Shown one piece after another: positions 1 through 14,399 of a stretch of DNA of 14,399 nt. A model generated the notes under the pieces. It had not been told where the DNA came from and ran no database searches. It saw nothing but the letters and a program-made list of their open reading frames with translations. Positions within the stretch are counted from its first letter, which is position 1; each line of letters opens with the position of its first letter. The stretch comes from a virus (lineage: Duplodnaviria > Heunggongvirae > Uroviricota > Caudoviricetes). The position numbers were made by a program, and so were the translations under genes. The DNA is taken from positions 1 to 14,399 of IMG/VR virus record IMGVR_UViG_2711768167_000007; one strand, written 5' to 3'.

Positions 1-1104
1 ATGAAAAATTTAACAGTGGCACTTTCTGCTGTAGCAGCATCAGTATTTCTGGCAATGTCTGCAAATGCAGCAGAAATATATAATAAAAACAGTAATAAAC
101 TGGATTTATATGGCAAAGTAGGGGGTAAACATTACTTTTCTTCTAACGCCAAAGAAGAAGGTGATGGAACTTATGCCCGTCTTGGATTCAAAGGTGAAAC
201 CCAAATCAACAATCAGTTAACTGGTTTTGGTCAATGGGAATATGAATTCAAAGGCAACAAGGCAGAAAAAGATGGCTCTGCAGGAGACAAAACCCGTCTG
301 GCATACGCTGGCCTGAAACTAGAAAATATTGGCTCTCTGGATTATGGTCGTAACTATGGCGTGGTGTATGACGCATTAAGCTATACTGATGTCCTCCCTG
401 AATTTGGGCCTGGTTCTGTTAACGGGGATAACTTCTTCGTGGGTCGTGTAGGTGGTGTTGCCACTTACCGTAATACCGACTTCTTCGGTCTGGTTGATGG
501 ACTGAACTTTGCGGTTCAGTATCTGGGTAAAAATGAGCGTGACAATGCAGGCACTTCAAACGGCGACGGTGTTGGCGGCTCTGTCAGTTATGAATATGAA
601 GGCTTTGGTTTTGTAGCTGCATATGGTGCAGCCGATCGCACCAATGCACAGGAAGCGACGACTTTTGGTAAAGGTAAAAAAGCTGAACAGTGGGCTACCA
701 GCGTAAAATATGACGCGAATAATCTGTACCTGGCAGCCACTTATGGTGAAACACGTAATACCCGCGCAATCAAGTACTCGCCCGGCGGCTACAACGGTGT
801 AGCCAATAAAACTGAAGATTTCGCTGTAGTTGCACAGTATCAGTTCGACTTTGGTTTGCGCCCGTCTCTTGCTTATATCCAGTCGAAAGCCAAAGACCTT
901 TCCACCAAAACTGGTATCCCTGAAAAACATAATGACGGATACATTGAAAAATTCATTGAAGTCGGTGCTGCTTATTACTTCAACAAAAATATGTCTACAT
1001 ACGTAGACTATAAAATCAACCTGCTTGATAAGAATCAATTCACTGAAAGAACTGATGTATTAACCGATGATATTGTCGCTGTTGGTTTGACTTATCAGTT
1101 CTGA
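1..1104 (+). CDS. Outer-membrane general porin, OmpC/OmpF/PhoE family (prophage-borne NmpC/Lc-like)
   Basis: ATG at position 1. Predicted signal peptide [23 protein letters not shown] then AEIYNK. Conserved porin blocks ([94 protein letters not shown]) and C-terminal ...VGLTYQF with terminal Phe typical of beta-barrel outer-membrane proteins. Position next to Q matches nmpC in DLP12 and lc in PA-2 (recalled). Confidence 0.9.
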
Positions 1105-1248
1105 TTTGTTTTGTAAGAATATGTCGGGAGAGTGAAACTTTTCTGACATATAAAGTGGTGCCCTCATGCCACTGCAAAACGTTGGACAGTACTTAACTTT
1201 TCCAACGGACTTTCTGTTATTTATTACCGTTTTTTGTTGTTTATACTT

Positions 1249-1277
1249 GGGCGCTTTGCGCCCGTTCTTTTATTTAT
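1249..1277 (+). terminator. Candidate rho-independent terminator downstream of the porin gene
   Basis: Perfect GC hairpin GGGCGC-TTT-GCGCCC (1249-1263) followed by T-rich GTTCTTTTATTTAT. On the minus strand the hairpin is followed by an A-rich tract, so it is probably unidirectional. Confidence 0.45.
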
Positions 1278-1287
1278 CCTGTACGCC

Positions 1288-1713
1288 TTATATCCCTGCC
1301 CTGAAGGACGGAGTTTTACGGCACATCGAATAATTTACGCTCACATACCGATCCATCTCAAGTCTTACTCCCAGCATCATCAACATGCCATCAACCACTC
1401 CTTCAGCTTTTTGCAAACGCTTTCCAATATGCGTATCAGAACATCCATGTTTCCTTGCTAACTTCATCAGCGTCATCCCACACACGTAGTAATCAACCAG
1501 CAATTCATGCAAATCACTGTTGTTCCGGTTCAGTTGAGCCATACAACCACAGATAATCATCGCGTCATCATCGGAACACTGCGGTCGCGATTTTACTTTT
1601 GACGGTATCAGCCCCTTGAATCCGGCGGCAATGGATGACCATTCCACGTCTTCGTGGTTATTCGCCACCCATGCCCCCCATCGCTCCATAACCTGCTGAA
1701 TATCACGCGCCAT
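1288..1713 (-). CDS. Late-gene antitermination protein Q-like (DLP12 QuuD-type)
   Basis: N-terminal [35 protein letters not shown]...SRPQC...[14 protein letters not shown] resembles QuuD-type Q proteins as I recall them. The track start at 1722 is a GTG; the first ATG is Met4 at 1713, which fits the family N-terminus better. Lies directly downstream of rusA, as in DLP12. Confidence 0.75.
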
Positions 1714-2074
1714 TGTTACCACCTGTAATTTCGTAAATCTTCACTCCCAGACGCCCGTCAGGTATTGACACGCCACGCACGATATAAATTTCATCAAACT
1801 GTTCGTCATCAATAAGCAGCCCCGCATGGGTCAGCGCATCCAGCGGTACTTTCAGTATGTTGTCCAGGTCACGGCGGCGGTTGTCTGGCGGGTCTGCGAT
1901 GATTTTTATACCCAGTCTTCCGGTCAGCCTTAATCTCAGTTGCTGCTGGCGAACAATAAGCCTGACATCACGACGATAACGTTCCCCCGCTTTTGATACA
2001 AAATACTTACCACCACGACGGTGCCAGTAAGTGTTCACCGGCGGCGGGTAAGGCAAAACAAATTCCAGACGCAT
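1703..2074 (-). CDS. rusA: Holliday-junction resolvase RusA
   Basis: 123 aa. N-terminal [11 protein letters not shown] and the acidic catalytic block [29 protein letters not shown] correspond to RusA (E. coli RusA has DRRRRDLDN...DALT...DD). GGAGG-containing RBS about 6 nt upstream of the ATG at 2074. Overlaps the Q gene start. Confidence 0.85.
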
Positions 2075-2192
2075 CTGTCCCCTCCTTCCACCCAGTCACA
2101 CCTGTTGCAAAAAAGCGTGGCAGAATAGAGAAAAAATTCAGCCATCACGCAGTAAACTCCTTCACCAGTTTTTCAAACTTTCCAGCCCTGCT

Positions 2193-3053
2193 TCATTGCT
2201 CACACTCCCCAACCAGATTGAGTATGACCGCAGCGCTATTGTCTTTCATATATTCGCCCTTTCCGCTTGCCAAAAACCAACGACACACCTCCACGGCTTC
2301 AGCCCGTGTCACCGGTTTGATGGTCATCAGCAATTTTTCAAGGTAGCGCTCGCGGTCATATACCGATTCGTGATGCTCAAAGTAACCAAACTCATCGCCC
2401 TGTTCTTTAGTTGCAGTGTGGCGAACACTGTAGAGCCAGTCCCAGTAAACAAACTCACGAACTACGTCTGACAATGTATGAGGCTCTGGCAGTACATCAC
2501 GATAGCCATCAACATATGCACGACGCTGATCATCAATTTCATTCATACGGATGCCGTCAATTCTGCCCGCTTTCTTCTCGGCTGCAGTCCAGCCCCAGAG
2601 ATGATCGTCGATAAATTTCTGGGAAGACTTGATCACTCGCTCGGCTTCCACATCTTCGAGTGCTGCTTCATAGCTACCAAACGTAGCCCTGACTGATGCT
2701 GCTTTTTTGATATTCTCCCGGGCGATCCTGATTGCCTGTGCCGGGTTATCCATGCCGATGGTACCGAAAGCAATCTGGAAAGGATCGCCACCATTCGCCA
2801 GCAGATAACGCGAATAGCGTTCCTGGGCCTCTTTTGGGGATATTTTAATTTTCACCAGCGCGGCCTCAGCAGCATCCAGATGTGCGGGTTCGTTCAGACG
2901 GATAACCTCCAGTACCCAAAGATAAGCATCAGTCTGCTTATGCCCGGTGATTCTCCGTTGCTCTGGCAGGGGTTTGATGTTTGCGAGGGCGGAGCTGTAC
3001 GCTGCCGTCGGGATGGTGAATAGTGCTTTATGTTCGTTGTTATCAGTACGCAT
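2193..3053 (-). CDS. Hypothetical phage protein (nin-region position), 286 aa
   Basis: Long ORF with ATG start; its start overlaps the stop of the upstream primase-like gene (TAATG). No family recognised by eye. Confidence 0.55.
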   Translation of the reverse strand: MRTDNNEHKALFTIPTAAYSSALANIKPLPEQRRITGHKQTDAYLWVLEVIRLNEPAHLDAAEAALVKIKISPKEAQERYSRYLLANGGDPFQIAFGTIGMDNPAQAIRIARENIKKAASVRATFGSYEAALEDVEAERVIKSSQKFIDDHLWGWTAAEKKAGRIDGIRMNEIDDQRRAYVDGYRDVLPEPHTLSDVVREFVYWDWLYSVRHTATKEQGDEFGYFEHHESVYDRERYLEKLLMTIKPVTRAEAVEVCRWFLASGKGEYMKDNSAAVILNLVGECEQ

Positions 3054-4021
3054 TACGCAGCCGCCTTTTTCTTATGGAAAACCAGCTCCCGAACCTGATC
3101 ACCGTTCATGAGCATATTGTTGAAATCATCGTGATCCGGCCAGTACACGCTCACGCGCTGCAGGTCATTCTTTGCCATCAGATTGGCATGAGCACATTCG
3201 CAAGCCGCAGCCAGCCCGGTGGCGCTGTTCTCGTCACGGTCGGCAAAAATAATCAGGTGCAGAACACCAGCTGGTACGCGGAACTTTTTCATAAAGCCGC
3301 TGTTAATGGTTGCCCAGGTGTTCACGTTATAAATCTGGTGCGCTGACAGCGCTGTTTCGATGCCTTCGGCGATACCCAGAGTGCTGGCGACAGGAAACAT
3401 GCGGATAGCTACAGAACGAGCGTGATCCAGATAGTTATCTTCCTGCAGGGATTTTAGGCGCTTTGCACTGCTACCGATATCTGCTTTTTTATCACCATCA
3501 AGCAGGGTCTGGTGCAGATAGCACAGCTCCCCTTTATCGTCCGTAGCAAGTGAATAAAGAGACTGGAACACACTCCCGTTGTGTCTCTGCCTGGCATTGA
3601 ACCTGATCGCCTCAGCAGGAAGACTGAATATTCCACGAGAATTAAGATACGCGGCGCCGGATGTACCACGCAGTGCCTCCAGTTTTGAAAACTTGCTCAA
3701 TACCCGTTTGCGTAAGCTGGTGGCGCTGCTGGTTACCGGGATTTTAACCCGTTGGTAATTATTACCGATCAGGCGGTCTATTTCGGTACAAATCACGTTA
3801 AATGGCTTCGCCTGTGTCAGGGTGACAAGTTTCATACCATCGCCACTACCACATACACAGATCCACGTTCCTGCACCGTCGCGGTCGTCAATTCGGAACT
3901 TGCCACGTGCACCGCATACCGGGCATTCACCCTTAAAGTGATTTTTTCCGGTTATCGGCGGCAGACCGAAGTGCTCTAATATTTCAGGCCAGCGGCCTTT
4001 CGCTGCATCTGCTGTTTTCAT
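3053..4021 (-). CDS. Primase-like protein with N-terminal zinc-binding motif and Toprim domain
   Basis: CPVCGARGKFRIDDRDGAGTWICVCG zinc-ribbon-like motif near the N-terminus and an acidic Toprim-like block LIIFADRDENSATG. Start lies 2 nt after the helicase stop (translational coupling). Confidence 0.75.
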   Translation of the reverse strand: MKTADAAKGRWPEILEHFGLPPITGKNHFKGECPVCGARGKFRIDDRDGAGTWICVCGSGDGMKLVTLTQAKPFNVICTEIDRLIGNNYQRVKIPVTSSATSLRKRVLSKFSKLEALRGTSGAAYLNSRGIFSLPAEAIRFNARQRHNGSVFQSLYSLATDDKGELCYLHQTLLDGDKKADIGSSAKRLKSLQEDNYLDHARSVAIRMFPVASTLGIAEGIETALSAHQIYNVNTWATINSGFMKKFRVPAGVLHLIIFADRDENSATGLAAACECAHANLMAKNDLQRVSVYWPDHDDFNNMLMNGDQVRELVFHKKKAAA

Positions 4022-4022
4022 C

Positions 4023-5681
4023 TTACTGACTCAGACTGTTTATATTTTTCTGGAGTTGTTGCTTTGCCTGCATAATGCGCCAAGCCTCACTTTCTTCCGG
4101 TGGAACATACCGGCCACCAACAACCAGTGGCAGAGAAAGCACTTCGGATGAGTTTTTCGTCATCCTCCGTGTCCGTTCACGACCTTTAGCAAACCGGATC
4201 AGCTTGTGTCTGATGTAGTTACTTACCTCTGGGCTTATTTCCATCGGGAAACTGCTCAACCCATCAGGCCATTCACCGAATTTCTCCCTGAAAGTGTGAG
4301 CGCACCATCCATCACTGACTGGACGCCCCAGTGAGGCACGCTGGCGCTGATAAAATTTGATCTGACTCCACCAGGCCTGTTTCTCTGCCTTCGTGGACTG
4401 ATGCTGATTTTTACCCAGCTTATTAAGTTTGCGGCTAGTGTCAGTATCAACGTCTTCACCTCGCAGCGGCTTGTGTCCACATTTCGGGCAAACATAGACG
4501 CCAGCTGGCTTCATGTAGTGGCATTGAGGGCATTCATGTGGCAATTTTTCGGCCCGTTCCTCAACTGCGCGGCGCGTGCTTTCCTCCATGCCGTCAGACT
4601 TACCGGGAAGATCGTCGTACTCGATTGAATCCGGATAACCCAGACGGTGCACGGTGCCGCTGTGATCGAAGATAAGGCAGGACGCTTTACCCGGTGCGGT
4701 GCGAAGTCCACGCCCGAGTGCCTGCAACCAGCGAATTTCGCTTTTTGTTGGCCTGGCGTAGATGATGCAACGAACGTCACTATCGAATCCGGCTACCAGA
4801 ACGCCCACACTAACGATGATTTTCGTTGCACCGGTTTCAAAGCGGTGAATGATGGTCTGGCGCTCATCTACCGGAGTGTCGGCGGTCATTACCTCAGCGT
4901 TAACACCCGCCAGGTTAAACTGGATTGTCAGATAATTGGCGTGAGCTACGTTGACGCAGAAAGCGATGGTAGGTAAATCCCGACCATTCTCCAGCCAGTT
5001 CTGTACGATGTCGCCCACCAGCGTAGAGCCGCACATGATTTCAGCCAGCTGCGTTTCGTTGTAATCCCGGCCGTACTCAAGCGAAGATGTGGTTTTAACA
5101 CCTTTCAGATCCGGCTTAGTTGGCGCGTAAAATTCGTATTTACTCAGATCGCCACGCTGGATTAACTCGCCGATGGTGGTCGGCTTAATCAGTCGGTCAT
5201 AGTATTTGCCCAGGAACGGAGAAAACGGAGTACCCGACAGGCCAATCACCTTTACGCCTTTGCCGCGCAGACGTTCGATATCCTTCAGGATGCGTTTTTT
5301 ACGCAGGTGCGCTTCGTCGATAATCAGCAGATCGATATTTTCAGGAAAAACACGACGAATAAGCGTGTCAGCGCTGGCAATCTGAATTTTCCGGTCCGGA
5401 TCGTAGTTCGGGTGATCCGCCCAGATATAACCGATTTCATCTCCAGGTAAACCATACTGCACGAACCGATTAGCCGTCTGACCAATCAGGATGGTGTACG
5501 GAACACAGAACAGAACGCGCATACCACGGCTGACAAAACCAGCAACTATGAAGGCTGCCAGACCCGTTTTACCGCTACCGGTTGGCGAGTACACCATGAA
5601 AGTGTCGTTTGCCTTCCAGTCACGGCGCAACATGTTTAACGCTCGTTCCTGTGCAAAATTCGGCGTGATCGTCAGCTCCAT
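4023..5681 (-). CDS. SF2 (DEAD/DEAH-box type) helicase with C-terminal zinc ribbon; putative replicative helicase of the prophage
   Basis: Walker A VYSPTGSGKTG, motif II LLIIDEAHL, motif III LSGTPF, motif VI QALGRGLR, and CPQC...CPKC zinc ribbon in the C-terminal extension. Occupies the position lambda O/P would take, between the cII-position gene and the nin region. Confidence 0.85.
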   Translation of the reverse strand: MELTITPNFAQERALNMLRRDWKANDTFMVYSPTGSGKTGLAAFIVAGFVSRGMRVLFCVPYTILIGQTANRFVQYGLPGDEIGYIWADHPNYDPDRKIQIASADTLIRRVFPENIDLLIIDEAHLRKKRILKDIERLRGKGVKVIGLSGTPFSPFLGKYYDRLIKPTTIGELIQRGDLSKYEFYAPTKPDLKGVKTTSSLEYGRDYNETQLAEIMCGSTLVGDIVQNWLENGRDLPTIAFCVNVAHANYLTIQFNLAGVNAEVMTADTPVDERQTIIHRFETGATKIIVSVGVLVAGFDSDVRCIIYARPTKSEIRWLQALGRGLRTAPGKASCLIFDHSGTVHRLGYPDSIEYDDLPGKSDGMEESTRRAVEERAEKLPHECPQCHYMKPAGVYVCPKCGHKPLRGEDVDTDTSRKLNKLGKNQHQSTKAEKQAWWSQIKFYQRQRASLGRPVSDGWCAHTFREKFGEWPDGLSSFPMEISPEVSNYIRHKLIRFAKGRERTRRMTKNSSEVLSLPLVVGGRYVPPEESEAWRIMQAKQQLQKNINSLSQ

Positions 5682-6094
5682 TGTGCAGCTCCCGTGCTGA
5701 TGAGATAATAATTTTGTGATGTGGTTTTCATGGATTCCCCCTCACATGGCTGGTGGCCTCCCCAAAGGCTGCCAGCCTCCCTTCTGATTCAGCTCCTCTG
5801 AAAAATCACTCTTCCAGGAAGAATCCTTTTCGTTTCTCAGCGCCTGAGCGCTTTGTACTACCTTGCTGATACGGGCGTTTTTTTAAATTGCGCCCTTAAG
5901 ACAGTGATCTACTTAACCAATGGATCTCTCCTGTTGGAAAAGACCCTATTCCTGCCCCAACACCCAATCCCCCCTTACCCCCCTTACCCTCTTCCCCATA
6001 AAAACGTACTACTTCCCTAGTACACATGAGGAGTTGGGTCAGTTGGTTGCCAACCTGAACAGGCACCTTTAAGCCTGCTTCTGTTCGGGTACCT
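5682..6094. other. Structured 413-bp intergenic region upstream of the helicase gene (candidate promoter and/or replication-origin region)
   Basis: Non-coding gap inside an otherwise tightly packed operon. Contains imperfect direct repeats GGCTGGTGGCCTCCCC (5748-5763) and GGCTGCCAGCCTCCC (5767-5781), a palindrome AGGCTGCCAGCCT (5766-5778), a hairpin GTACTA-N6-TAGTAC (about 6005-6022), a palindrome GGTTGCCAACC (about 6044-6054) and a C-rich tandem-repeat tract. Function is inferred, not shown. Confidence 0.35.
5971..5988. repeat. Tandem 9-mer CCCCTTACC x2 inside a C-rich tract (5955-5997)
   Basis: Direct reading: ccccttacc (5971-5979) immediately followed by ccccttacc (5980-5988), flanked by further C runs. 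The minus strand here is G-rich with at least four G runs. Confidence 0.8.
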
Positions 6095-6403
6095 TTAAAC
6101 CCGAAACAATGAGGAGCGCGATTGCGATCCAGCCAGGGGAGGTTCGGCTGTATACCCCTGTAAAGCTCTGCCCTGATTTCTTACAAACAGGCGGAGCCTT
6201 GTGTTTGCTTCGTGCCTTGCTCTGTTCTCCTTGCGGAATGAAACAGGCTCAGCGTCAAAAGTGATTTCGTATACCTCCGCATATTTCAGGGCAACCTTCC
6301 GTCTCAGTGACGGAGGCAGCCCCTGTAACTGCTGCTGAATCCACTCTTCGTCTGCCTGGCAGTACCTAGATGGCATCTCTGTCTGAACGTAATTCTGGGA
6401 CAT
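6095..6403 (-). CDS. Hypothetical protein at the cII position (possible regulatory protein), 102 aa
   Basis: ATG start 12 nt downstream of the Cro-like gene's stop. Identity not recognised; call rests on position only. Confidence 0.5.
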   Translation of the reverse strand: MSQNYVQTEMPSRYCQADEEWIQQQLQGLPPSLRRKVALKYAEVYEITFDAEPVSFRKENRARHEANTRLRLFVRNQGRALQGYTAEPPLAGSQSRSSLFRV

Positions 6404-6415
6404 ACAAGCCCTTCA

Positions 6416-6688
6416 TCATTCGTTTTTCATAACTGCCGCATTTGTGGCTGTGTGACTTCTACGTAACAAATCAGGGATTGCATCTTCAGGATGGGGATAA
6501 AGATCTGGTCTTAACCCATGAGGAGTAACTTTCCATTCCACAACTTCACATACACGCAAGACGAAACGAGCAGGAATTGTTCTTTTTGAAAACCATTGGT
6601 TCACAGCTTGCGGCGTAACGCCTAGATTTCGCGCTATGGCATTTTGTGCAATTAGCTCACGAAGTGCGTCGTAATCATTTCCTTTCAT
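6416..6688 (-). CDS. Cro-like / YdaS-type helix-turn-helix regulator, 90 aa
   Basis: Small protein with HTH-like segment RNLGVTPQAVNQWFSKRTIPARFVLRV. Transcribed divergently from the CI-like repressor across an operator-bearing intergenic region. Confidence 0.75.
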   Translation of the reverse strand: MKGNDYDALRELIAQNAIARNLGVTPQAVNQWFSKRTIPARFVLRVCEVVEWKVTPHGLRPDLYPHPEDAIPDLLRRSHTATNAAVMKNE

Positions 6689-6822
6689 CGCAACCCACCA
6701 ATCTAAACTTTATAAATTCAAGATTACATCAAGTTTAAATTAACATGCAAGTCCACAAAAGATCGAATACACTAAAATCAAGTAAAAATTTATCGAAACC
6801 AAGTAACCAGCAAGGATTAACA
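6689..6822. promoter_or_regulatory. Divergent immunity promoter/operator region (oR-like) between Cro-like and CI-like genes
   Basis: AT-rich 134-bp gap between divergent HTH genes. ATCAAGT motif at 6728-6734 and 6777-6783; the 13-mer aaatcaagtaaaa (6775-6787) recurs beyond the repressor gene at 7540-7552. Confidence 0.55.
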
Positions 6823-7512
6823 ATGAAAAACTTAAAGAGCACTGAAAATCGAATTACAAAGCTGCTACAGGAGAAAGGCTGGAGCCAAGCAGAGCTGGCC
6901 CGAAAGTTAGGTGTCAGCGCACAGTCCGTACAGTACTGGACAACAGGAAAAACATTTCCAAGGGGAAACCGGCTTGCCCAGTTATCCGAAATAAGTGGTT
7001 ATCCGCAATCGTGGTTTTTAGGAGAAATCACGTCACGGCAGTTCTCTTCAAAGGAAAAACATCAAGCAAGAACTGACAGTGTGGTCTTTAACGTGCTCGA
7101 TGTTGAGTTTAGTTGCGGCGATGGAACACATGTCCGTGGGGACTTTATCGATGTAGTTCGCTCAATCGAGCTTGATCCTGAATATGCCCGTCGCCTTGTT
7201 GGCAATAGAGCATTTCAAAACATAGAGATTGGTAACGCAAGAGGAGATAGTATGGCTCCAACAATAGCCCCAGGAGATCTTCTTTTTCTCGATAAAACAG
7301 TGAATTACTTTGATGGTGATGGCATTTATGCTTTTTGCTTTGATGGTGAATGCTACGTCAAAAGATTACAAAAGATAGGAAGTAAAATCATGGTGTTATC
7401 TGATAACCCAAATTACCAATCCTGGAGCATTGAAAAAGATGCTCTTGAGCTGCTTTATATCCAATCGAAGGTAATATCATCTGTTCCATTCAATATAAAT
7501 AGATTTGGTTAA
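6823..7512 (+). CDS. CI-like prophage repressor (N-terminal HTH-XRE, C-terminal S24 LexA-type peptidase domain)
   Basis: HTH segment GWSQAELARKLGVSAQSVQYWTTGKTFP; S24 catalytic motifs GDSMAPT (Ser) and VKRL (Lys). Start chosen at the ATG at 6823 (RBS AGGA about 6 nt upstream) rather than the track's 6745 ATG, because 6745-6822 carries the operator repeats. Confidence 0.85.
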   Translation: MKNLKSTENRITKLLQEKGWSQAELARKLGVSAQSVQYWTTGKTFPRGNRLAQLSEISGYPQSWFLGEITSRQFSSKEKHQARTDSVVFNVLDVEFSCGDGTHVRGDFIDVVRSIELDPEYARRLVGNRAFQNIEIGNARGDSMAPTIAPGDLLFLDKTVNYFDGDGIYAFCFDGECYVKRLQKIGSKIMVLSDNPNYQSWSIEKDALELLYIQSKVISSVPFNINRFG

Positions 7513-7659
7513 TTATTTATTATTAAAGAAAAAATTTACAAATCAAGTAAAAGAGACGCAGAAATCAATTTTTTCTTGACAACCCCATCAATCAAGATCT
7601 AACATCACACCATCAATTTTAACTTGATTTGTTGTTAATTTTAAATTGATGGTGATTCA
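7513..7659. promoter_or_regulatory. oL/pL-like promoter-operator region driving the plus-strand early operon
   Basis: ATCAAGT at 7542-7548, ATCAAG at 7591-7596 and inverted CTTGAT at 7623-7628. TTGACA at 7576-7581 with TAACAT 18 bp downstream (7600-7605). Perfect 12-bp inverted repeat CACCATCAATTT (7608-7619) / AAATTGATGGTG (7643-7654) overlapping the start region of the next gene. Confidence 0.5.
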
Positions 7660-8088
7660 ATGAAAGATCTGACAACCACTGAGATATCGAACTTAAACCA
7701 CTTCGAAAAAGAATCCTTTGCATTAAATATTGCAAATCTGGTAGGTGCTGCTCGTACTTTCCATTTAATTGATGGTGATCGCTCTAAAGAATTGGGGTTT
7801 GAAGTCATGGAGTTTGTTCATGAATACGCCCTGTCTGCTACTTATCCATTACATAATCACATAATCAACAAACAACCAAATAAAATCCGCACCCAACGCG
7901 AAGCCTGCGGCTTAACAACCGCCGAACTCGCCAGGCTGCTCGATCTCGATGAAGAAATTATCATCCAGTGGGAAAGCGGAGAGTACGAACCAACCATCAG
8001 CATGCTTATCCCTCTGGCTAATGTTCTTGGCTGTGATCCAATGTTGTTATTGACTGATGCTTATAAACAAAATCAGGAGGAAGCATAA
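7660..8088 (+). CDS. HTH-XRE DNA-binding protein with uncharacterised N-terminal domain, 142 aa
   Basis: C-terminal segment IRTQREACGLTTAELARLLDLDEEIIIQWESGEYEPTISMLIPLANVLGCDPMLL is a typical XRE-family HTH; the N-terminal 70 aa are unrecognised. First gene after the oL-like region. Confidence 0.65.
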   Translation: MKDLTTTEISNLNHFEKESFALNIANLVGAARTFHLIDGDRSKELGFEVMEFVHEYALSATYPLHNHIINKQPNKIRTQREACGLTTAELARLLDLDEEIIIQWESGEYEPTISMLIPLANVLGCDPMLLLTDAYKQNQEEA

Positions 8089-8089
8089 G

Positions 8090-8281
8090 ATGAAAATGTT
8101 CAAAGGCCTTACCAACGAACCGGAAACAGCTTTTCATCACATTGCCGTACTGCTTGAAGCGGGGTTAATCATTTCGGCTTCCGGTGATGATGAATGTGAT
8201 GAACTTTCGGATGATATCTTTTTACTGGCACAACAATACGCCAGAAGCGCATGCGATGCATTTAAGGAGCAAAGAACATGA
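8090..8281 (+). CDS. Small acidic hypothetical protein, 63 aa
   Basis: ATG at 8090 is 2 nt after the upstream stop, with AGGAGG 9 nt upstream. Preferred over the track's 8057 start, which overlaps the upstream gene. Rich in Asp/Glu. Confidence 0.5.
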   Translation: MKMFKGLTNEPETAFHHIAVLLEAGLIISASGDDECDELSDDIFLLAQQYARSACDAFKEQRT

Positions 8282-8469
8282 AAACGCCCATGACTATGCT
8301 CGAATATGTAGCCGCAGAAATAAAAGAAAACACGTCAATGCTTGAGTTTATCTTTAAAAATTCGCCCGACTCAGGAGAGTTAGACGATTATTTATGTTGT
8401 CTCATCAGGTCCATGAATAAGACCTGTGAAATGGCTTACGAGTATATAGAAACACTACGTAACGAATAA
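8278..8469 (+). CDS. Small acidic hypothetical protein, 63 aa
   Basis: ATGA start/stop overlap with the preceding gene; AAGGAG 7 nt upstream. Acidic composition. Confidence 0.5.
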   Translation: MKTPMTMLEYVAAEIKENTSMLEFIFKNSPDSGELDDYLCCLIRSMNKTCEMAYEYIETLRNE

Positions 8470-8653
8470 AGAATACTCAATAAAAAATCACACATAAAAA
8501 CATGACGGCCTCTGGTCGGGAGTTTTCACAACCAGAAAATAATGGTGATACATGAAAAATAGAAGCGCTTATAAAACCGCCTTATTAATGGCTAATGCAG
8601 GATACTGGTCAGTTGCAATACTGTTTCTTAGGAAAGCATACGGGAAATAACAA

Positions 8654-9013
8654 ATGGCATATGAAATCATTGGTAAATATCGTCACCGCATAGTCACAAC
8701 AGCATTACAGCGGATGCAACGTAAAACAGGAGGAAATCTTCTCATCGTAAATCTTCCTGACGGAGGGTTAACTACCATCGAAATTACGGAACACTTCATG
8801 ACACAACTGTTATTACGATTTGAAGGTCTTACCCGTGTTGAATTTGGACGGACGGATGGCGAGACCGCAATACTTGCCGCATACCGGAATGCCATCAATA
8901 TTAATCAACACACTGAGTATCTAACTGAATCGGGGAAGTTAATTGTAGACAACCTTTTAAAAGAGGTTGTTGATTACGAAAAAGAAAAATATACCAGTGG
9001 AGGAATTAACTGA
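8654..9013 (+). CDS. Hypothetical protein, 119 aa
   Basis: ATG-initiated ORF after a 184-bp gap; stop overlaps the next ORF's start (TGATG). Confidence 0.5.
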   Translation: MAYEIIGKYRHRIVTTALQRMQRKTGGNLLIVNLPDGGLTTIEITEHFMTQLLLRFEGLTRVEFGRTDGETAILAAYRNAININQHTEYLTESGKLIVDNLLKEVVDYEKEKYTSGGIN

Positions 9014-9222
9014 TGTCTGATTTATCCCCTCTTATACACGAAAAAGTAAATATCGTGCTGACAATCGAGAACGGGAAAGTTATCCACGTGCGCCCGGTTC
9101 AGAACGGCGAGGTTACAGCATCGCTGGAGACTTTTTTATGGATGGCTGAACGCGCCGGTTACACGATCACCCCACCTGCAGGAGAGAAGGACAATGGCCC
9201 TGACAGCGATACGAATTCCTGA
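9013..9222 (+). CDS. Hypothetical protein, 69 aa
   Basis: ATG overlapping the upstream stop. Its 3' end overlaps the 9194 ORF by 29 nt, so one of the two may be shorter or not real. Confidence 0.4.
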   Translation: MSDLSPLIHEKVNIVLTIENGKVIHVRPVQNGEVTASLETFLWMAERAGYTITPPAGEKDNGPDSDTNS

Positions 9223-9415
9223 GCGGGTGCACCTGCAGGCGGTCCGTGTTCTCCGCAAGTTCAGAGCCAGACGAATTCATCCCTGTCGTATGCACGGCTC
9301 CGGAAACCTGAGTCTGAGGGTTAATCGCCGCTGGCGGCTGCTGTCCCGAGACGGCGGCCAGAACTGGGAAGTAATGAGCCATGAACGATACAGCAAAGTT
9401 AAGGACCGGAAATGA
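9194..9415 (+). CDS. Hypothetical arginine-rich small protein, 73 aa
   Basis: ATG at 9194 with GAGAAGGA RBS-like sequence just upstream; strongly basic (many Arg). Overlaps the preceding ORF. Confidence 0.3.
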   Translation: MALTAIRIPERVHLQAVRVLRKFRARRIHPCRMHGSGNLSLRVNRRWRLLSRDGGQNWEVMSHERYSKVKDRK

Positions 9416-9448
9416 ACAATAAACCTTCAAACCAAAAGGAGAGTATTG

Positions 9449-10027
9449 ATGATTAATTCAACCATTACCCCTGAACCTACATTAACAGGCATCCGTTTTG
9501 GTAATCGAATTATTGGTTATTCAACTGCGGTTCGCCAGATCGACAACGGTAACTATGACAAACGAATTCCGGACGGGCTCGATCTGATAGCTTGCATTAT
9601 GGAAGGGATTGAAAGCGGCTGGTTTATGCCGGGTATTGAAAAACAAATCATCCTATGGCGCTGGCTTGTTGTCGCCGTGTTCATTGCTGAGGAGCAGGAG
9701 AAGAACGGGACTGTCGATGTTCAGAATGACAAGGGCGGCGTAGATACAGCCGTTGTATACACAGGAAAACCCGGTTCAATCAGCATTTATCCGTGGTCTG
9801 AGCGCTTCACGCTCGCCAACCATATTGAGGCGGGCGCAATTGAAAAATACGGGCCTGACGTTGGCCAGCAGATGGCGCTGCGTATGTATCAGGACATGGT
9901 TGTAACTGACGAGAAATGCGGATTCAGGCTGTCAGCGATGGGCCAGGAGGGATTCAACATACTACATGACAGCTTCATTGAACTGATTCAGAAAGACGGT
10001 ATGCCAGACATGCCGGTTATGCACTGA
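9449..10027 (+). CDS. Hypothetical protein, about 192 aa
   Basis: The track ORF begins at a TTG (9446); the first ATG is at 9449 with AAAGGAGAG RBS 7 nt upstream. Followed 11 nt later by the next gene. Confidence 0.55.
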   Translation: MINSTITPEPTLTGIRFGNRIIGYSTAVRQIDNGNYDKRIPDGLDLIACIMEGIESGWFMPGIEKQIILWRWLVVAVFIAEEQEKNGTVDVQNDKGGVDTAVVYTGKPGSISIYPWSERFTLANHIEAGAIEKYGPDVGQQMALRMYQDMVVTDEKCGFRLSAMGQEGFNILHDSFIELIQKDGMPDMPVMH

Positions 10028-10038
10028 GGTGGACGAAA

Positions 10039-10788
10039 ATGAACATAGTAACGATCAATAACAAACAGTTTCCGGTAATCGACTATCGCGGTCAGCGCGT
10101 GGTGACGCTGGCGATGATTGATGAAGTGCACCAACGCCCAGACGGAACAGCGGGACGCAATTTCCGCGAAAACAAGTCTCGTCTTATTGAAGGGGAAGAC
10201 TACTTCGAATTAGGTTCCGACGAAATTCGTCGACACCTCCCTGACGGTACTTTCTCAAAATTTGCAGCAGCAGGAATTGTACTGGTCGAATCCGGTTATT
10301 TGATGTTGGTGAAATCCTTCACCGACGATCTGGCCTGGCAGGTTCAGCGCGAACTGGTTAACAGCTACTTCCGCACTCGCGCACCTCTTTCTGAAATCGA
10401 GATGATCGCCGCAATGGCCGCCGATGCCGTTCGCCAGCAGAAGCGCCTGAATCATGTGGAAGAACAGCTCGAAACAGTCACAGAAGCGGTGGAAACCATC
10501 AAACGCGGAAATATGCGCGCCGGATATGTCGGTTATCGCCAGGTGGTCGCCAAAAGCGGAATGACTGATGCTAAGTGCCGCAATCTGGTCAATGCCTACA
10601 GCATCCCAACCGATACGCACGAATTTATGACACCAGATGGTCTTCTTTCGCGCCGGGCTATCGTGGAGCTGGAGCCGTTCATGAAAGCATTTCATCAGAT
10701 GATGTCAGAGGCAGAGCCACGCGGCACACGCTGGTATCACCCGAAGATGGGACTTTTCCAGGTGATCGGATGGGAGGATAAAGCATGA
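10039..10788 (+). CDS. ORF6N/KilA-N-superfamily domain protein (antirepressor-like DNA-binding protein), 249 aa
   Basis: N-terminal segment QRVVTLAMIDEVHQRPDGTAGRNFRENKSRLIEGEDYFEL follows the ORF6N pattern (...RN..RF.eDF.F.L..eE) as I recall it. GAGGTGG RBS upstream. Coupled to neighbours on both sides. Confidence 0.6.
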   Translation: MNIVTINNKQFPVIDYRGQRVVTLAMIDEVHQRPDGTAGRNFRENKSRLIEGEDYFELGSDEIRRHLPDGTFSKFAAAGIVLVESGYLMLVKSFTDDLAWQVQRELVNSYFRTRAPLSEIEMIAAMAADAVRQQKRLNHVEEQLETVTEAVETIKRGNMRAGYVGYRQVVAKSGMTDAKCRNLVNAYSIPTDTHEFMTPDGLLSRRAIVELEPFMKAFHQMMSEAEPRGTRWYHPKMGLFQVIGWEDKA

Positions 10789-11354
10789 TCATCCAGTCAA
10801 AACTTATTCGCGCCGCTCTGGTGTGCGCTGCTAAAAACGACGTTCGTTATTACCTGAACGGTCTTCACATCACGCCGAAACATATTGAGGCAACCAATGG
10901 TTGCGTGGCACTGCGCATGGCTCACGGCATCCGGACGAAGAAAAACATCATTGTCCAGTTCGAAGGGGGCGTACCGGCCAAAGCCGAAACGACAGAGCTG
11001 ATTTTTAGTAAAGAGCCGATCGCTGTTCATCGCGACCAGTTTCAGCGACGACTGTCCATTACCGGCATAAAACTGGTGGACGGTTGTTTTCCGGATTTGG
11101 ATCGCATCATTCCGAAAAAGTTTGACCGCTGTACTCATCCGGTGATCCAGGCGGGTTACCTGAGTTATCCAGAGAAGATGTTTGGTCGTGAGCGTAAATT
11201 TATTCCCGTCCAGTTACGTCCCTCCGGTGACGGGCAAGCGGTCAGAATTCAGTTTGATTCCATCATCAACTCAATGTATGGCAATCCTGAATTTGTTGTG
11301 ATGCCTTGTCGTGATTATGGCGATTTCAACGTGGCTCAGGAGCATCCGGAATGA
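10785..11354 (+). CDS. Shortened beta-sliding-clamp (DnaN)-like protein, 189 aa
   Basis: Motif-level matches to E. coli DnaN recalled from memory: NDVRYYLNG vs QDVRYYLNG (start of DnaN domain II), KLVDGCFPDLDRIIPK vs KLVDGRFPDYRRVLPK (end of domain II), C-terminal EFVVMPCR vs AYVVMPMRL. ATGA overlap with the upstream gene; GGGAGGA RBS. Confidence 0.6.
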   Translation: MIIQSKLIRAALVCAAKNDVRYYLNGLHITPKHIEATNGCVALRMAHGIRTKKNIIVQFEGGVPAKAETTELIFSKEPIAVHRDQFQRRLSITGIKLVDGCFPDLDRIIPKKFDRCTHPVIQAGYLSYPEKMFGRERKFIPVQLRPSGDGQAVRIQFDSIINSMYGNPEFVVMPCRDYGDFNVAQEHPE

Positions 11355-11575
11355 AAATCGAATACCAGGACTATGGCGCCGTAGCGAACATCGTGATCAC
11401 CAGTTCCCGCCTGACATTGCAAAAGCATAACCGCGTTGTTGATGCGGTGCTGTTTAATGTACAGGGGATCTATGAAAACCGCAGCGGCTTTTTCTGGGTT
11501 AAGTCATCGTTGTCAGGAAAAACACGCGACATCCTGCGCGCCTACAAAATCGTACAGCGGGAGGCAAAGCGATGA
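11351..11575 (+). CDS. Hypothetical protein, 74 aa
   Basis: ATGA-coupled to the upstream gene, with CAGGAGC RBS-like sequence. Confidence 0.45.
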   Translation: MKIEYQDYGAVANIVITSSRLTLQKHNRVVDAVLFNVQGIYENRSGFFWVKSSLSGKTRDILRAYKIVQREAKR

Positions 11576-11667
11576 AGTCATTCCTCCTGTCCATGCTGTT
11601 TGGTCTGCTGCTGGCGTCCGTCGTTTTCGGTGCGCTGATTGAATATAAATTTTTAATGAATTACTGA
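11572..11667 (+). CDS. Candidate small hydrophobic (single-TM-like) peptide, 31 aa
   Basis: Not in the ORF track (too short). ATG at 11572 overlaps the upstream stop (ATGA). Translation MKSFLLSMLFGLLLASVVFGALIEYKFLMNY is dominated by a hydrophobic stretch. Confidence 0.3.
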   Translation: MKSFLLSMLFGLLLASVVFGALIEYKFLMNY

Positions 11668-11675
11668 GGTGCGGA

Positions 11676-12305
11676 ATGAGCAAGATCAAAAACCCAGTTG
11701 TACTTATCCATAAACGAGAAAATAGTGACTCCTACGCCGTTGCAATCACCTGCGGTAGCCAGAACTATCACGACGCCGTTCTGATGGCGTCGATGGAACT
11801 GGATATGAGTGACGATGATGTCGATACCTGGAGTAAAACCGGCTACTACATGGCTCAAGAAATCGAGCGACTTAAACAAGCGCTGTCCGCTGCGGAAAAT
11901 AATTTGATTGATTCCGAATGCCTCGTCGCTGAATTAAGCAAAGCAAAGAATCACGCATATGGGCTGGTCGACACATACGACTGGCAACGTCAGCGTCTCC
12001 ACGCAGCCGCAGAGAAAGTCATCAAATGGTGCAGACAAGAAGCTGAACACCGTACCGGCGACCCAGAGAAAGCAGAAAACTATGCGTGTGTTAAAGAACT
12101 ACGCGACGCATTAACTTTTTGCAAAAGTTCTGAAGGCAGCAAGAAGAAAGGCCTGACCATCACCCTGCCCGATATCACATCAAAGGCATTCTGGAGCGGT
12201 ACCGGAAAAAACGCAAAATTCCATCCGGAAACCTATAAACGCTGGGTGAAAGAAGCTGTCAAACGGGATTGTGTTATTGCCGGGATCGGCGTGGAGGTGA
12301 AATGA
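11676..12305 (+). CDS. Hypothetical protein, 209 aa
   Basis: ATG with GAGGTG RBS. No family recognised; occupies the region where lambda carries ea-type accessory genes. Confidence 0.55.
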   Translation: MSKIKNPVVLIHKRENSDSYAVAITCGSQNYHDAVLMASMELDMSDDDVDTWSKTGYYMAQEIERLKQALSAAENNLIDSECLVAELSKAKNHAYGLVDTYDWQRQRLHAAAEKVIKWCRQEAEHRTGDPEKAENYACVKELRDALTFCKSSEGSKKKGLTITLPDITSKAFWSGTGKNAKFHPETYKRWVKEAVKRDCVIAGIGVEVK

Positions 12306-12388
12306 TGAATTGGCCTGAAGCATTCACCGCAGTAGGAGTTGCAATAGCGGTGGCATTTATTCTGTATTCGCTTTTCCGCTGGGGATAA
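12302..12388 (+). CDS. Candidate small hydrophobic peptide, 28 aa
   Basis: Not in the ORF track. ATG at 12302 overlaps the upstream stop (ATGA). Translation MMNWPEAFTAVGVAIAVAFILYSLFRWG has one hydrophobic helix-length segment. Confidence 0.3.
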   Translation: MMNWPEAFTAVGVAIAVAFILYSLFRWG

Positions 12389-12392
12389 AGGA

Positions 12393-12635
12393 ATGTTCGC
12401 TCTGATTCAACGTGGTCAGATATACACCGATAGTGCTGGCTACCCGGTAAAAATTATTCGCTGCATAAACAACACTGTGTTGTACAGAAGAATGGATGGG
12501 AGAACACAGTCGGTAAAAATAAACGATTTCAATGAACTGTTTGAACGGATTGATCACCAGGAATACCGACAAATTCTGGCAGAAACAGAGCAGGAAGCTC
12601 ATCTGAAAAAATTACGGGCCATGAAAAGGAAGTAA
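12393..12635 (+). CDS. Hypothetical small protein, 80 aa
   Basis: ATG with AAGGA RBS 3 nt upstream. Basic C-terminus. No family recognised. Confidence 0.5.
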   Translation: MFALIQRGQIYTDSAGYPVKIIRCINNTVLYRRMDGRTQSVKINDFNELFERIDHQEYRQILAETEQEAHLKKLRAMKRK

Positions 12636-12638
12636 AGA

Positions 12639-12785
12639 ATGAATAAAGCATTTGAACTATGGGTGCGCCAGCGTTATGGCAATCGCTATGACCTGACGCG
12701 AGATGTTGACGGTTTCTACTGTCGTGAAATTGTGAAACGAATGTTTGAAGTGTGGTGCCACTGCCGTGGGCTGAGTGTTGTGTGA
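12639..12785 (+). CDS. Hypothetical small protein, 48 aa
   Basis: Not in the ORF track. ATG at 12639 with AAAAGGAAG upstream; translation MNKAFELWVRQRYGNRYDLTRDVDGFYCREIVKRMFEVWCHCRGLSVV. Confidence 0.35.
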   Translation: MNKAFELWVRQRYGNRYDLTRDVDGFYCREIVKRMFEVWCHCRGLSVV

Positions 12786-12793
12786 GGTAATGC

Positions 12794-13030
12794 ATGGGCA
12801 ATGTGATTCAACTGGCTCCCAATGAATGGGTTTGTGAAAGCGTTCTAATCGCAATTACCGGGCTCAAACCAGGCACAATTCTTCGGGCCCGAAAAGAATG
12901 CTGGATGGTTGGAAGAGAGTATATTCACGTATCACCAGACGGTAATCCAAAGCCTTCCAGTGAATGTATGTATAACAGAAAAGCAATAGATGCCTGGGTC
13001 GCTTCAATGAAAAACAAACAACCTGGGTGA
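12794..13030 (+). CDS. Excisionase-like protein (putative Xis)
   Basis: 78-aa protein immediately upstream of the integrase on the same strand. The segment GLKPGTILRARKECWMVGREYIHVSPDGNPKPSSECMYNRKAIDAWV resembles the putative-excisionase family of enterobacterial prophages as I recall it. Confidence 0.6.
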   Translation: MGNVIQLAPNEWVCESVLIAITGLKPGTILRARKECWMVGREYIHVSPDGNPKPSSECMYNRKAIDAWVASMKNKQPG

Positions 13031-13085
13031 TTTAATGCCATGAAGTATGTAAGCTCGTATCGCTCTTGGGCGTCTGGAGGTATCA

Positions 13086-14399
13086 ATGGATAAAGTCAAA
13101 TATCCAACAGGCGTCGAAAACCACGGCGGCACATTACGCATCTGGTTTAATTTTAAAGGTAAACGTGTCAGGGAAAATCTTGGTGTCCCTGACACTGCCA
13201 AGAACAGGAAAATCGCCGGGGAACTGCGGACATCGGTATGTTTTGCCATCCGCACAGGAAGCTTTGATTATGCTGCACAGTTCCCTGACTCCCCTAACCT
13301 TCAGGCTTTTGGGGTAAGTAAAAAAGAAATTACGGTGAAGGAACTTGAAGAAAAGTGGCTGGATCTGAAACGAATGGAGATCTCTGCAAATGCATTCAAT
13401 CGCTATGAATCCGTTGCAAGAACGATGGTTCCGAAAATTGGAGGCAGCAGACTGGTGTCATCGGTAACTAAAGAGGAATTGCTGTATATCAGGAAAGATT
13501 TGCTGACCGGGTACCAGAATTCAACGAAAAACAAAGCAGCAGCAAAAGGACGGAGCGTCGTTACTGTAAATTATTACATGACGACAATCGCTGGAATGTT
13601 TCAGTTTGCTGCAGATCACGGTTACTTAGAAGCAAATCCCTTCCAGGGAATTAAGCCTCTTAAAAGAGCCAGGGCAGAGCCAGATCCGCTAACTCGTGAC
13701 GAATTTATTCGCCTGATAGATGCTTGCCGACATCAGCAGACGAAAAACCTGTGGTCATTGGCTGTGTACACAGGAATGCGTCACGGTGAACTGGTCTCCC
13801 TGGCCTGGGAAGATATCGATCTGAAAGCAGGAACTATTACTATCAGGCGCAATTATACGAAACTCGGTGAGTTCACTCTACCTAAAACTGAAGCAAGTAC
13901 AAACAGGGTTGTGCATCTTATCCAGCCCGCTATCAGTGTCCTGAAAAATCAGGCTGAAATGACAAGACTGGGTAAGCAGCACCACATCAAGGTTCAACTA
14001 CGTGAATATGGGCGTTCAGTGAATCATGAATGTACTTTCGTATTTAACCCCCAGGTGGTTAGAAAAAGCAAACAGGTCGGTTTTATCTACAAGGTAGATT
14101 CTATTGGCGACTCATGGGAAACAGCCATTAAGCGTGCGGGCATCAGGCACCGGAAAGCATACCAGTCACGACACACTTATGCGTGCTGGTCATTATCTGC
14201 CGGAGCAAATCCAAGCTTCATTGCCAGCCAGATGGGCCATGCAAGTGCCCAGATGGTGTTCAATGTATACGGAGCATGGATGACTGACAGTAATGCAGAA
14301 CAGATCGCAATGCTGAATCAGAAGCTGGCAGATTATGTCCCAATGATGTCCCATGGTCACCAAAGTGACACAAGAGACTTATTAAAATCAGTGGGTTAG
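13086..14399 (+). CDS. Tyrosine site-specific integrase (phage integrase family)
   Basis: GGAGG RBS 5 nt upstream of the ATG. N-terminal arm-binding-type region (PTGVENHGGTLRIWFNFKGKRVRE), catalytic-domain motifs RHGELVSLAWEDIDL, SRHTYACW (box II R/H) and GHASAQMVFNVYGAW (His and Tyr nucleophile region). Stop codon is the last three bases of the window. Confidence 0.9.
   Translation: MDKVKYPTGVENHGGTLRIWFNFKGKRVRENLGVPDTAKNRKIAGELRTSVCFAIRTGSFDYAAQFPDSPNLQAFGVSKKEITVKELEEKWLDLKRMEISANAFNRYESVARTMVPKIGGSRLVSSVTKEELLYIRKDLLTGYQNSTKNKAAAKGRSVVTVNYYMTTIAGMFQFAADHGYLEANPFQGIKPLKRARAEPDPLTRDEFIRLIDACRHQQTKNLWSLAVYTGMRHGELVSLAWEDIDLKAGTITIRRNYTKLGEFTLPKTEASTNRVVHLIQPAISVLKNQAEMTRLGKQHHIKVQLREYGRSVNHECTFVFNPQVVRKSKQVGFIYKVDSIGDSWETAIKRAGIRHRKAYQSRHTYACWSLSAGANPSFIASQMGHASAQMVFNVYGAWMTDSNAEQIAMLNQKLADYVPMMSHGHQSDTRDLLKSVG

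Follow-up and report, generated by a model that had tools for sequence, protein, structure and literature searches.

The pL operon of phage lambda (N, ral, ea10, cIII, kil, gam, bet, exo, orf60a-61-63, ea22, ea8.5, xis, int) is the standard against which the locus described here is set, together with two published groups of lambdoid phages that lack parts of it. Eru1 Shiga-toxin phages, e.g. TL-2011c, carry a superfamily 2 (SF2) DEAH helicase and a 323-residue Toprim protein and are reported to be without N, CII and CIII (PMC8044961, Llarena et al. 2021). A recombination (Rec) module is missing from 68 of 314 (22%) Enterobacteriales lambdoid phages, 62 of these 68 have at least 8 Chi sites in the active orientation, and type phage LLS of this group has no N homologue (PMC12315714, Zheng et al. 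2025). The locus compared with these systems is a set of plus-strand early genes between a cI-type repressor gene and an excisionase gene in a 14,399-nucleotide stretch of tailed-phage DNA (IMG/VR virus record IMGVR_UViG_2711768167_000007, positions 1 to 14,399 of that record; this whole stretch is called the window). Judged by its sequence, the window is a Fels-1/phi467-type lambdoid prophage of the yecE kind, and its segment 7576-13030 is probably the leftward early (pL-type) operon of that prophage, N-independent, Rec-less and mosaic. Since a lambdoid class without N, Red, Kil and CIII is documented and near-identical sequences are present in databases, the operon is ordinary rather than new; what it offers is a compact set of early genes that are conserved yet unstudied, with a shortened sliding clamp as the best lead.

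The operon shares with lambda pL its position and direction relative to cI, a putatively operator-controlled promoter, many very small coupled genes, and distal xis and int. It differs in that Int is the only lambda pL product with a detectable homologue in the window; BLASTP and phmmer comparisons with every lambda protein from int to N gave one significant pairing, integrase with integrase (5e-6). It also has neither nutL nor an excess of terminators. The likeness to Eru1 phages consists of a helicase followed by a 322-residue Toprim protein in place of O/P, with no N, CII or CIII homologue found; however, the Toprim protein is just about 58% identical and the window is closer to Fels-1/phi467, and the likeness to Eru1 is one of replication module and reported absences. 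As in LLS-type phages, the early-left operon has no gene for a single-strand annealing protein, exonuclease, SSB or anti-RecBCD protein, and no N, whereas the early-left genes of LLS itself are of the yfbR/yfdQ/yfdP type and not those of the window.

Lacking a recombination module, the phage must rely on host recombination. Three Chi sites (GCTGGTGG) are found in the 14.4-kb window, at 3716, 5015 and 5749, compared to 0.41 expected, and three were reached in 0 of 200 shuffles. In the nearest complete prophage, 44.9 kb long, Chi is likewise enriched, with 4 sites on the top strand and 2 on the bottom strand where about 1.2 and 0.5 are expected, but the number stays below the class norm of at least 8. 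Because of this low number the Chi signature is weak, and a reliance on RecBCD and Chi is at most possible.

Over 100% of its length the operon shares 98.9% identity with a prophage located at yecE in E. coli TUM1886, and phage phi467 (LN997803, an Stx2f phage) is 93% identical over 84% of the block. Some part of the block is present in 1004 of 5426 complete E. coli genomes, but at least 80% of it in just 6. Both phi467 and the TUM1886 prophage have the gene order of the window from cI to the 48-residue o14 that precedes xis, an identical cI and the same helicase/Toprim module; the Toprim protein shares 98.8% identity with its phi467 counterpart, 94.7% with the Fels-1 protein and about 58% with the proteins of Stx2a phages. 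phi467 is unlike the window in having a gene for a 112-residue protein in place of the short clamp, an o5 allele of 58% identity and a different integrase. The TUM1886 prophage (locus L001, 6737-7339 and 2839-4118) is unlike it in that a NUMOD4-domain gene abuts the helicase gene, and the interval from Q to the gene for a 286-residue protein has no annotated RusA gene, which the window does have there (1703-2074). The tyrosine integrase of the window (13086-14399, plus strand) is 100% identical to the TUM1886 integrase, whose gene abuts yecE. Conservation was followed across 12 related loci, 7 of them E. coli or phage loci and 5 from Salmonella, Citrobacter and Buttiauxella.

Operon structure and the lambda functions

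A sequence-only reading of this DNA had described 7660-12785 as a densely coupled plus-strand early operon between repressor and excisionase, with roughly 15 proteins. The open reading frames (ORFs) and their spacings confirm the coupling, and the protein number proves slightly low, since 14 plus-strand ORFs of at least 48 codons together with 3 micro-ORFs conserved in relatives make 17, xis not counted. The successive gene spacings are +1, -4, +82, +3, -1, -29, +33, +11, -4, -4, -4, +8, -4, +4, +3 and +8 nucleotides. Each of the 14 larger ORFs matches a PHROG family (E 3.6e-18 to 2.6e-87), all block ORFs are intact in the window, and the 6 minus-strand ORFs that overlap the block have no family match. 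The boundary on the promoter side is the cI-type repressor gene (6823-7512, plus strand, alternative start 6745), whose start at 6823 and name are those of the PGAP annotation in TUM1886; its product combines HTH_3 (Pfam E 6.6e-9) with Peptidase_S24 (E 9.3e-17) and matches phrog_4 'transcriptional repressor' at E 2.6e-52. The excisionase gene xis (12794-13030, plus strand) is identified by Pfam DUF1233 'putative excisionase' (E 9.5e-33) and phrog_539 (E 7.4e-40).

The sole plus-strand promoter-like site of the block is a pL-like promoter at 7576-7605, TTGACA-18-TAACAT, with 10 of 12 matches in the promoter scan. It is flanked by operator-like palindromes at 7564-7580 (ATCAATTTTTTCTTGAC) and 7612-7628 (ATCAATTTTAACTTGAT), and palindromes of this form, ATCAA-N7-TTGA(T/C), recur on the pR side of cI, between cI and cro, a pattern that suggests that they are operators. 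A 47-nucleotide leader hairpin (7608-7654, plus strand) of -17.3 kcal/mol (z = -4.56; 1 of 200 shuffles folded as RNA was equally good) covers with its 3' arm the GGTGA Shine-Dalgarno sequence of the first gene, o1. The hairpin coincides with the operator-like palindromes and may reflect a DNA-level palindrome, act in the RNA, or both; the longer non-coding gaps at 8470-8555 and 12300-12395 show no unusual fold (z = -1.3 and +0.9). Terminator-like sites in the block number 8 compared to 7.1 expected, i.e. chance level.

In the proposed mechanism, the adjacent cI-type repressor would hold the operon off through the operator palindromes at the promoter, and upon loss of the repressor the genes would most likely be expressed as a single transcript that runs to xis and possibly on to int. 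N/nut antitermination would not be needed, since N, a nut site and terminators to be overridden are all missing, and the tight translational coupling would limit access of Rho. Telling against a single transcript, an internal promoter below the scan threshold or Rho-dependent termination may lie within the block.

As to function, the absence of N, of Exo/Bet/Gam or any other recombinase, and of Kil and CIII, which the sequence-only reading had put forward, holds for every ORF in searches of Pfam, PHROGs and NCBIfam, and in the same databases no block product matches the RecE/T, Erf, Ral, Ea10 or Ea22 families. A search for boxA allowing at most 1 mismatch gave 2 matches, both on the minus strand, outside the leader and at chance level, and no nut site was found in the leader; an Rfam scan of the whole window returned no family, and a put-like RNA may stand in place of a nut site. 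The first three products, o1 to o3, are acidic, with isoelectric points (pI) of 4.4-4.7, and have no arginine-rich motif. The broader statement that none of the products matches a usual lambdoid function at motif level was nevertheless too strong, since five products do carry recognisable features, i.e. HTH_3, ParE_like, ORF6N, a beta-clamp homologue and DUF4222.

The short clamp o9 and the trio o4-o5-o6

The o9 gene (10785-11354, plus strand; phrog_3007 E 1.5e-64) encodes a truncated beta sliding clamp of 189 residues, as compared to 366 in E. coli beta (DnaN). By itself o9 matches E. coli beta weakly, and a profile built from the 32-sequence o9 family matches it (1jqj) at E 6.7e-20 over residues 136-250 and 314-365, the C-terminal VVMPxR included. 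The AlphaFold2 (AF2) model is confident (pLDDT 91.2, pTM 0.87) and consists of one full and one half domain; all of its top PDB matches in Foldseek are DnaN clamps, with a TM-score of about 0.6 when normalised to the query and about 0.3 when normalised to the target. o9 corresponds to domain II together with the C-terminal half of domain III, while domain I and the first half of domain III are absent. In beta, these two absent parts form the dimer interface. Since they are missing, and since the model places no helix in its second half-domain (the latter half of the part resembling domain II), o9 is not expected to form a ring. A tetrameric ring of 1.5-domain subunits was also considered and is judged unlikely from the model, a confidently predicted compact monomer with no inner helix in its second half-domain.

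Unlike the ring-forming parts, the residues of the clamp-binding-motif pocket are kept in o9. The contacts of clamp-binding peptides on beta are R152, G174, H175, L177, P242, R246, V247, V360, M362 and P363 (PMC3716654). Among 141 diverse cluster representatives of the o9 family (median identity to o9 28%), the columns that are at least 80% conserved correspond to beta D150, R152, Y154, L155, G157, T172, G174, H175, P242, D243, Y323, M362, P363 and R365, and the pocket residues, to which R152, L155, T172, G174, H175, P242, Y323, M362, P363 and R365 are assigned, are the most conserved columns. The family thus appears, as far as alignment and model can indicate, to have kept the docking pocket and discarded the ring, and o9 most likely binds proteins with clamp-binding motifs, as a putative decoy or adaptor. 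A more general proposal, that short phage clamps are not processivity factors and are instead monomeric, ring-less pocket modules used by phages as decoys or adaptors, is put forward tentatively. If true, titration of Pol III alpha/delta, Hda, Pol II/IV/V or MutS/MutL could leave host replication stalled or over-initiated, or repair blunted; alternatively, o9 could hand the host polymerase to the phage helicase-primase. Several observations weigh against a pocket function, i.e. the H175 equivalent is Cys in o9 of the window, o9 is dispensable in relatives, where its slot is taken by a 112-residue protein or by DUF5406, and a strict clamp-binding motif is missing from every protein of the window. 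A candidate clamp-binding motif in o4, QLLLRF at residue 51, was set aside since its Gln is not kept in distant homologues (GLLRRF, KLLLRF).

Homologues of o9 number 79, there are 71 cluster representatives at E < 1e-30, and nearly all of the top 150 are 170-215 residues long. The family is found in at least 210 phage records, phages isolated on E. coli K-12 included, with many BFVD models at TM 0.7-0.8. Names given to its members include 'DNA polymerase III beta subunit', 'beta clamp domain protein', in PGAP 'beta clamp domain-containing protein', and, mistakenly, 'RusA-like Holliday junction resolvase', a name that has spread from phrog_3007; because o9 is a clamp homologue, the 'RusA-like resolvase' label of phrog_3007 is an annotation error. 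A literature search found no functional study of a short phage clamp.

The second of the two concrete leads is o6 (9194-9415, plus strand), a very basic protein of 73 residues (pI 11.9) encoded downstream of an AGGAG ribosome-binding site. By its match to Pfam ParE_like PF24732 (E 2.9e-19; 69.3 bits compared to a cut-off of 24.4) it is a predicted ParE/RelE-superfamily toxin-like protein, as also in its PGAP name 'ParE family toxin-like protein', and it would be expressed from a repressed early operon. It may act on gyrase, as ParE does, or on mRNA, as RelE does, and a PDB sequence search found no solved relative of o6. Identity of o6 is 82-97% in 10 of the 12 related loci and 63-69% in L003 and L004. 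It forms the end of a trio with o4 (8654-9013, plus strand; 119 residues; phrog_1737 E 1.4e-48) and o5 (9013-9222, plus strand; 69 residues, acidic, pI 4.7; phrog_340 E 8.6e-21). The o5 gene is ATGA-coupled to o4 and overlaps o6 by 29 nucleotides, and the o5-o6 pair is present in 12 of 12 related loci; from this arrangement o5 is the likely partner and a candidate antitoxin of o6. None of the 88 homologues of o5 has a functional name, o4 has no helix-turn-helix (HTH) and no PDB sequence match, and PDB sequence searches gave nothing significant for o4, o5, o6, o7 or o12. A literature search found no characterised PF24732 protein.

A number of observations tell against a toxin-partner relation: searches of Pfam, NCBIfam and the PDB matched o5 to no ribbon-helix-helix (RHH), Phd, HTH or AbrB fold, no promoter-like site lies upstream of the trio to give a candidate toxin-antitoxin cassette a promoter of its own, and the o5 and o6 alleles do not strictly covary. 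Moreover, the genes next to the o6 homologues of phage Sortsne (E 1.8e-17) and Serratia phage OS31 (E 1.6e-19) are unrelated to those of the trio, one of them encoding a ParB-like protein. As a universal partner of the o6 family, o5 fails at this long range. The family is also present in phages of the genus Sortsnevirus (Sortsne and relatives), isolated from wastewater on E. coli K-12, and its occurrence in such phages points to a function during infection and not to one in addiction.

The closest described cassette is PaaR2-PaaA2-ParE2 of prophage CP-933P (PMC8630535), which the trio resembles in being a coupled three-gene cassette of a lambdoid prophage, next to the immunity region, with a small acidic protein followed by a ParE-superfamily toxin-like protein. 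The trio differs in that it has no sequence similarity to the solved ParE2 and PaaA2 chains, o4 is without an HTH, and the genes lie inside the repressed pL operon rather than alongside the repressor gene. Study of either o9 or o6 could bring to light a new means by which phages interfere with the host replisome or with translation.

The trio belongs to a conserved core that includes further very small products. Directly upstream of o4, s32 (8552-8650, plus strand) is a basic micro-ORF of 32 residues, conserved at the same position with 47-53% identity in L007 and L009-L013 (Salmonella, Citrobacter and Buttiauxella prophages among them) and annotated as a gene in L009. o10 (11351-11575, plus strand) encodes a basic protein of 74 residues (phrog_1001 E 4.3e-33). 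o11 (11572-11667, plus strand) is a hydrophobic micro-protein of 31 residues with a hydropathy index (GRAVY) of 1.39, which is annotated in phi467 and 77-100% conserved, distant loci L010-L013 included. The micro-ORFs s32, o11 and s28 (the last in the tail of the operon) are missed by most annotations; o11 and s28 are probably membrane-spanning.

Mosaic cassettes and alternative readings

The comparison of conserved with variable slots that the sequence-only reading had proposed brings out both kinds across the 12 loci. The o4-o5-o6 trio is in 12 of 12, and o10-o11 in most. o7-o8-o9 are missing from L009-L013, and because the trio abuts o10-o11 directly in L010-L013, o7-o8-o9 are taken as an inserted cassette. 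Within the E. coli set, an SPFH-gene cassette is found in the o7 slot, the 112-residue gene or DUF5406 in the o9 slot, and ead/Ea22-like and DUF551 genes in the o12 slot. GC content is 37-40% from the immunity region to the end of o4 and about 50% from o5 on, with the step near 9000 where o4 meets o5, and in the distant loci identities are 43-58% for o4 as compared to 71-91% for o5 and 82-97% for o6; the GC step together with the drop in o4 identity relative to o6 therefore points to a recombination joint at the o4/o5 boundary. The operon would thus be a mosaic of four cassettes, i.e. a head (o1-o3), the core (s32, o4-o6, o10, o11), the inserted accessory cassette (o7-o9) and a tail (o12, s28, o13, o14, xis).

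The head begins with o1 (7660-8088, plus strand), a protein of 142 residues with an N-terminal helical domain and a C-terminal XRE-type HTH. HTH_3 matches at E 3.5e-11 over residues 76-127 and phrog_4836 'CII-like regulator' at E 1.5e-58, and NCBIfam gives weak DicA/MqsA-type HTH matches. o2 (8090-8281, plus strand; 63 residues, acidic) is homologous to the N-terminal domain of o1 (residues 15-60); phrog_4587 matches both o2 (E 2.7e-34) and o1 residues 16-61 (E 2.9e-7), and an ungapped 45-residue alignment of the two proteins scores z = 4.2 (p = 0.002 over shuffles), a similarity that BLASTP alone does not find. o2 would accordingly be a stand-alone copy of the putative non-DNA-binding domain of o1. 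SinR/SinI is a regulator with a small antagonist homologous to part of that regulator, and the o1-o2 arrangement is likened to it by analogy from sequence only. o3 (8278-8469, plus strand; 63 residues, acidic; phrog_6882 E 1.6e-37) has no match in Pfam, NCBIfam or PADLOC. A paralogous relation between o2 and o3 is unsupported (p = 0.38).

In the accessory cassette, o7 (9449-10027, plus strand; 192 residues; phrog_1515 E 2.6e-87) occupies a variable slot and has 299 homologues; its AF2 model is of moderate quality (pLDDT 66) and finds no PDB fold match (best E 0.65). o8 (10039-10788, plus strand; 249 residues) is of antirepressor type by Pfam ORF6N PF10543 (E 1.3e-14) and phrog_1726 'anti-repressor' (E 5.5e-66) and, if active, would reinforce derepression once pL fires. 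In L003 (the prophage of E. coli N61, 5040-5867) the o7 slot holds a cassette with an SPFH-domain protein. SPFH proteins (HflK/C) modulate FtsH, and the SPFH gene of L003 could be a functional stand-in for lambda CIII. A further observation on the relatives is a stand-alone S24-peptidase protein of 125-128 residues, whose gene lies within the early-left operon, downstream of the gene for the full-length cI-type repressor, in L010-L013 (3968-4354) and L009 (4149-4526), the loci from Salmonella, Citrobacter and Buttiauxella.

The tail starts with o12 (11676-12305, plus strand; 209 residues; phrog_492 E 3.6e-18), of which residues 63-157 give a non-significant match to a coiled-coil chimera (best PDB 5wlq, E 0.99). 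Its slot is the one that in L003 contains the ead/Ea22-like and DUF551 genes. In TUM1886 and others its sole annotation is that of a pseudogene truncated at the N-terminus, although tblastn finds it in full length at 97% in TUM1886. o12 was rejected as an Ea22 homologue, as profile searches and direct comparison show no similarity to lambda Ea22. ATGA-coupled to its stop is s28 (12302-12388, plus strand), a hydrophobic micro-ORF of 28 residues (GRAVY 1.14), 96-100% conserved in L001, L002 and L004-L007, and 44% identical at the same length in L003. The remaining tail genes are o13 (12393-12635, plus strand), an 80-residue DUF4222 protein (Pfam E 1.6e-17; phrog_285 E 4e-35), and o14 (12639-12785, plus strand; 48 residues; phrog_3871 E 5.7e-36).

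Three other readings of this operon have been weighed. It is conceivable, if rather doubtful, that the operon is functionally standard and that small proteins (o2, o3, s32, o10, o11, s28, o14) or o1 do Kil-, CIII- and N-like jobs with unrelated sequences. Lambda Kil (47 residues) and CIII (54 residues) are equally small, three micro-ORFs are conserved in divergent relatives, o1 is first after pL as is N in lambda, and a related prophage has the SPFH-domain gene in the o7 slot, CIII being a protein that targets FtsH. However, these products show no sequence or profile similarity to the lambda proteins, the acidic o1-o3 lack the arginine-rich motif, o1 looks like a DNA-binding HTH protein rather than an RNA-binding antiterminator, and an N analogue would find neither a nut site nor terminators. 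Unlikely, too, is an island made up mainly of counter-defence or superinfection-exclusion genes, which would be in keeping with lambdoid early-left regions that carry such genes (Gam, Ral, SieB), with the mosaic, variable slots and with the finding that phages isolated on E. coli K-12 also have members of the o6 and o9 families; toxin-like modules, moreover, can act in abortive infection. Nothing directly supports the earlier suggestion of anti-defence content: the PADLOC matches were generic HTH ones, all for o1, and no product matches a named anti-defence protein in Pfam, PHROGs or NCBIfam. Since the operon is repressed in the lysogen, it is also poorly placed for prophage-encoded defence. 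Host-interaction functions, the other part of that suggestion, are plausible.

A decaying cryptic prophage, from which lambda-type genes have been deleted and in which the remaining ORFs are remnants with no coherent function, is very improbable. Some relatives do have pseudogenes here, with o12 N-terminally truncated in TUM1886 and others and frameshifts in strain A41, but all ORFs of the window are intact, the same gene order is found in phi467, which was deposited as a phage genome record, and again in a complete prophage of 45 kb whose modules for replication, lysis, head and tail are all full. In addition, the core trio is conserved across genera, and whole published phage classes are without the missing genes. 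For the favoured reading, i.e. an N-independent, Rec-less pL-type operon of mosaic construction, an adverse point is that o3, o4, o7, o10, o12, o14 and the micro-ORFs have no functional match from sequence.

Neighbouring genes of the window

Further genes of the window lie on the far side of the repressor gene. A YdaS/Cro-type regulator is encoded at 6416-6688 (minus strand), and the gene in cII position (6095-6403) matches phrog_852, a family of unknown function. The DEAD/DEAH helicase of SF2 (4023-5681, minus strand) has its name from PGAP, and the adjoining Toprim/zinc-ribbon primase-type protein of 322 residues (3053-4021, minus strand) matches Pfam Toprim_3, Zn_Ribbon_Prim and DUF7146. 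Between the Toprim and RusA genes is the gene for a 286-residue protein whose function is not recognised, and RusA (1703-2074, minus strand) is followed by the Q antiterminator gene (1288-1722, minus strand). Adjoining Q is a porin gene (1-1104, plus strand), with transcription directed toward Q, which takes its name from the PGAP 'porin' of the matching gene in the TUM1886 prophage; it presumably resembles lysogenic-conversion outer-membrane porins of the PA-2 lc/DLP12 nmpC kind.

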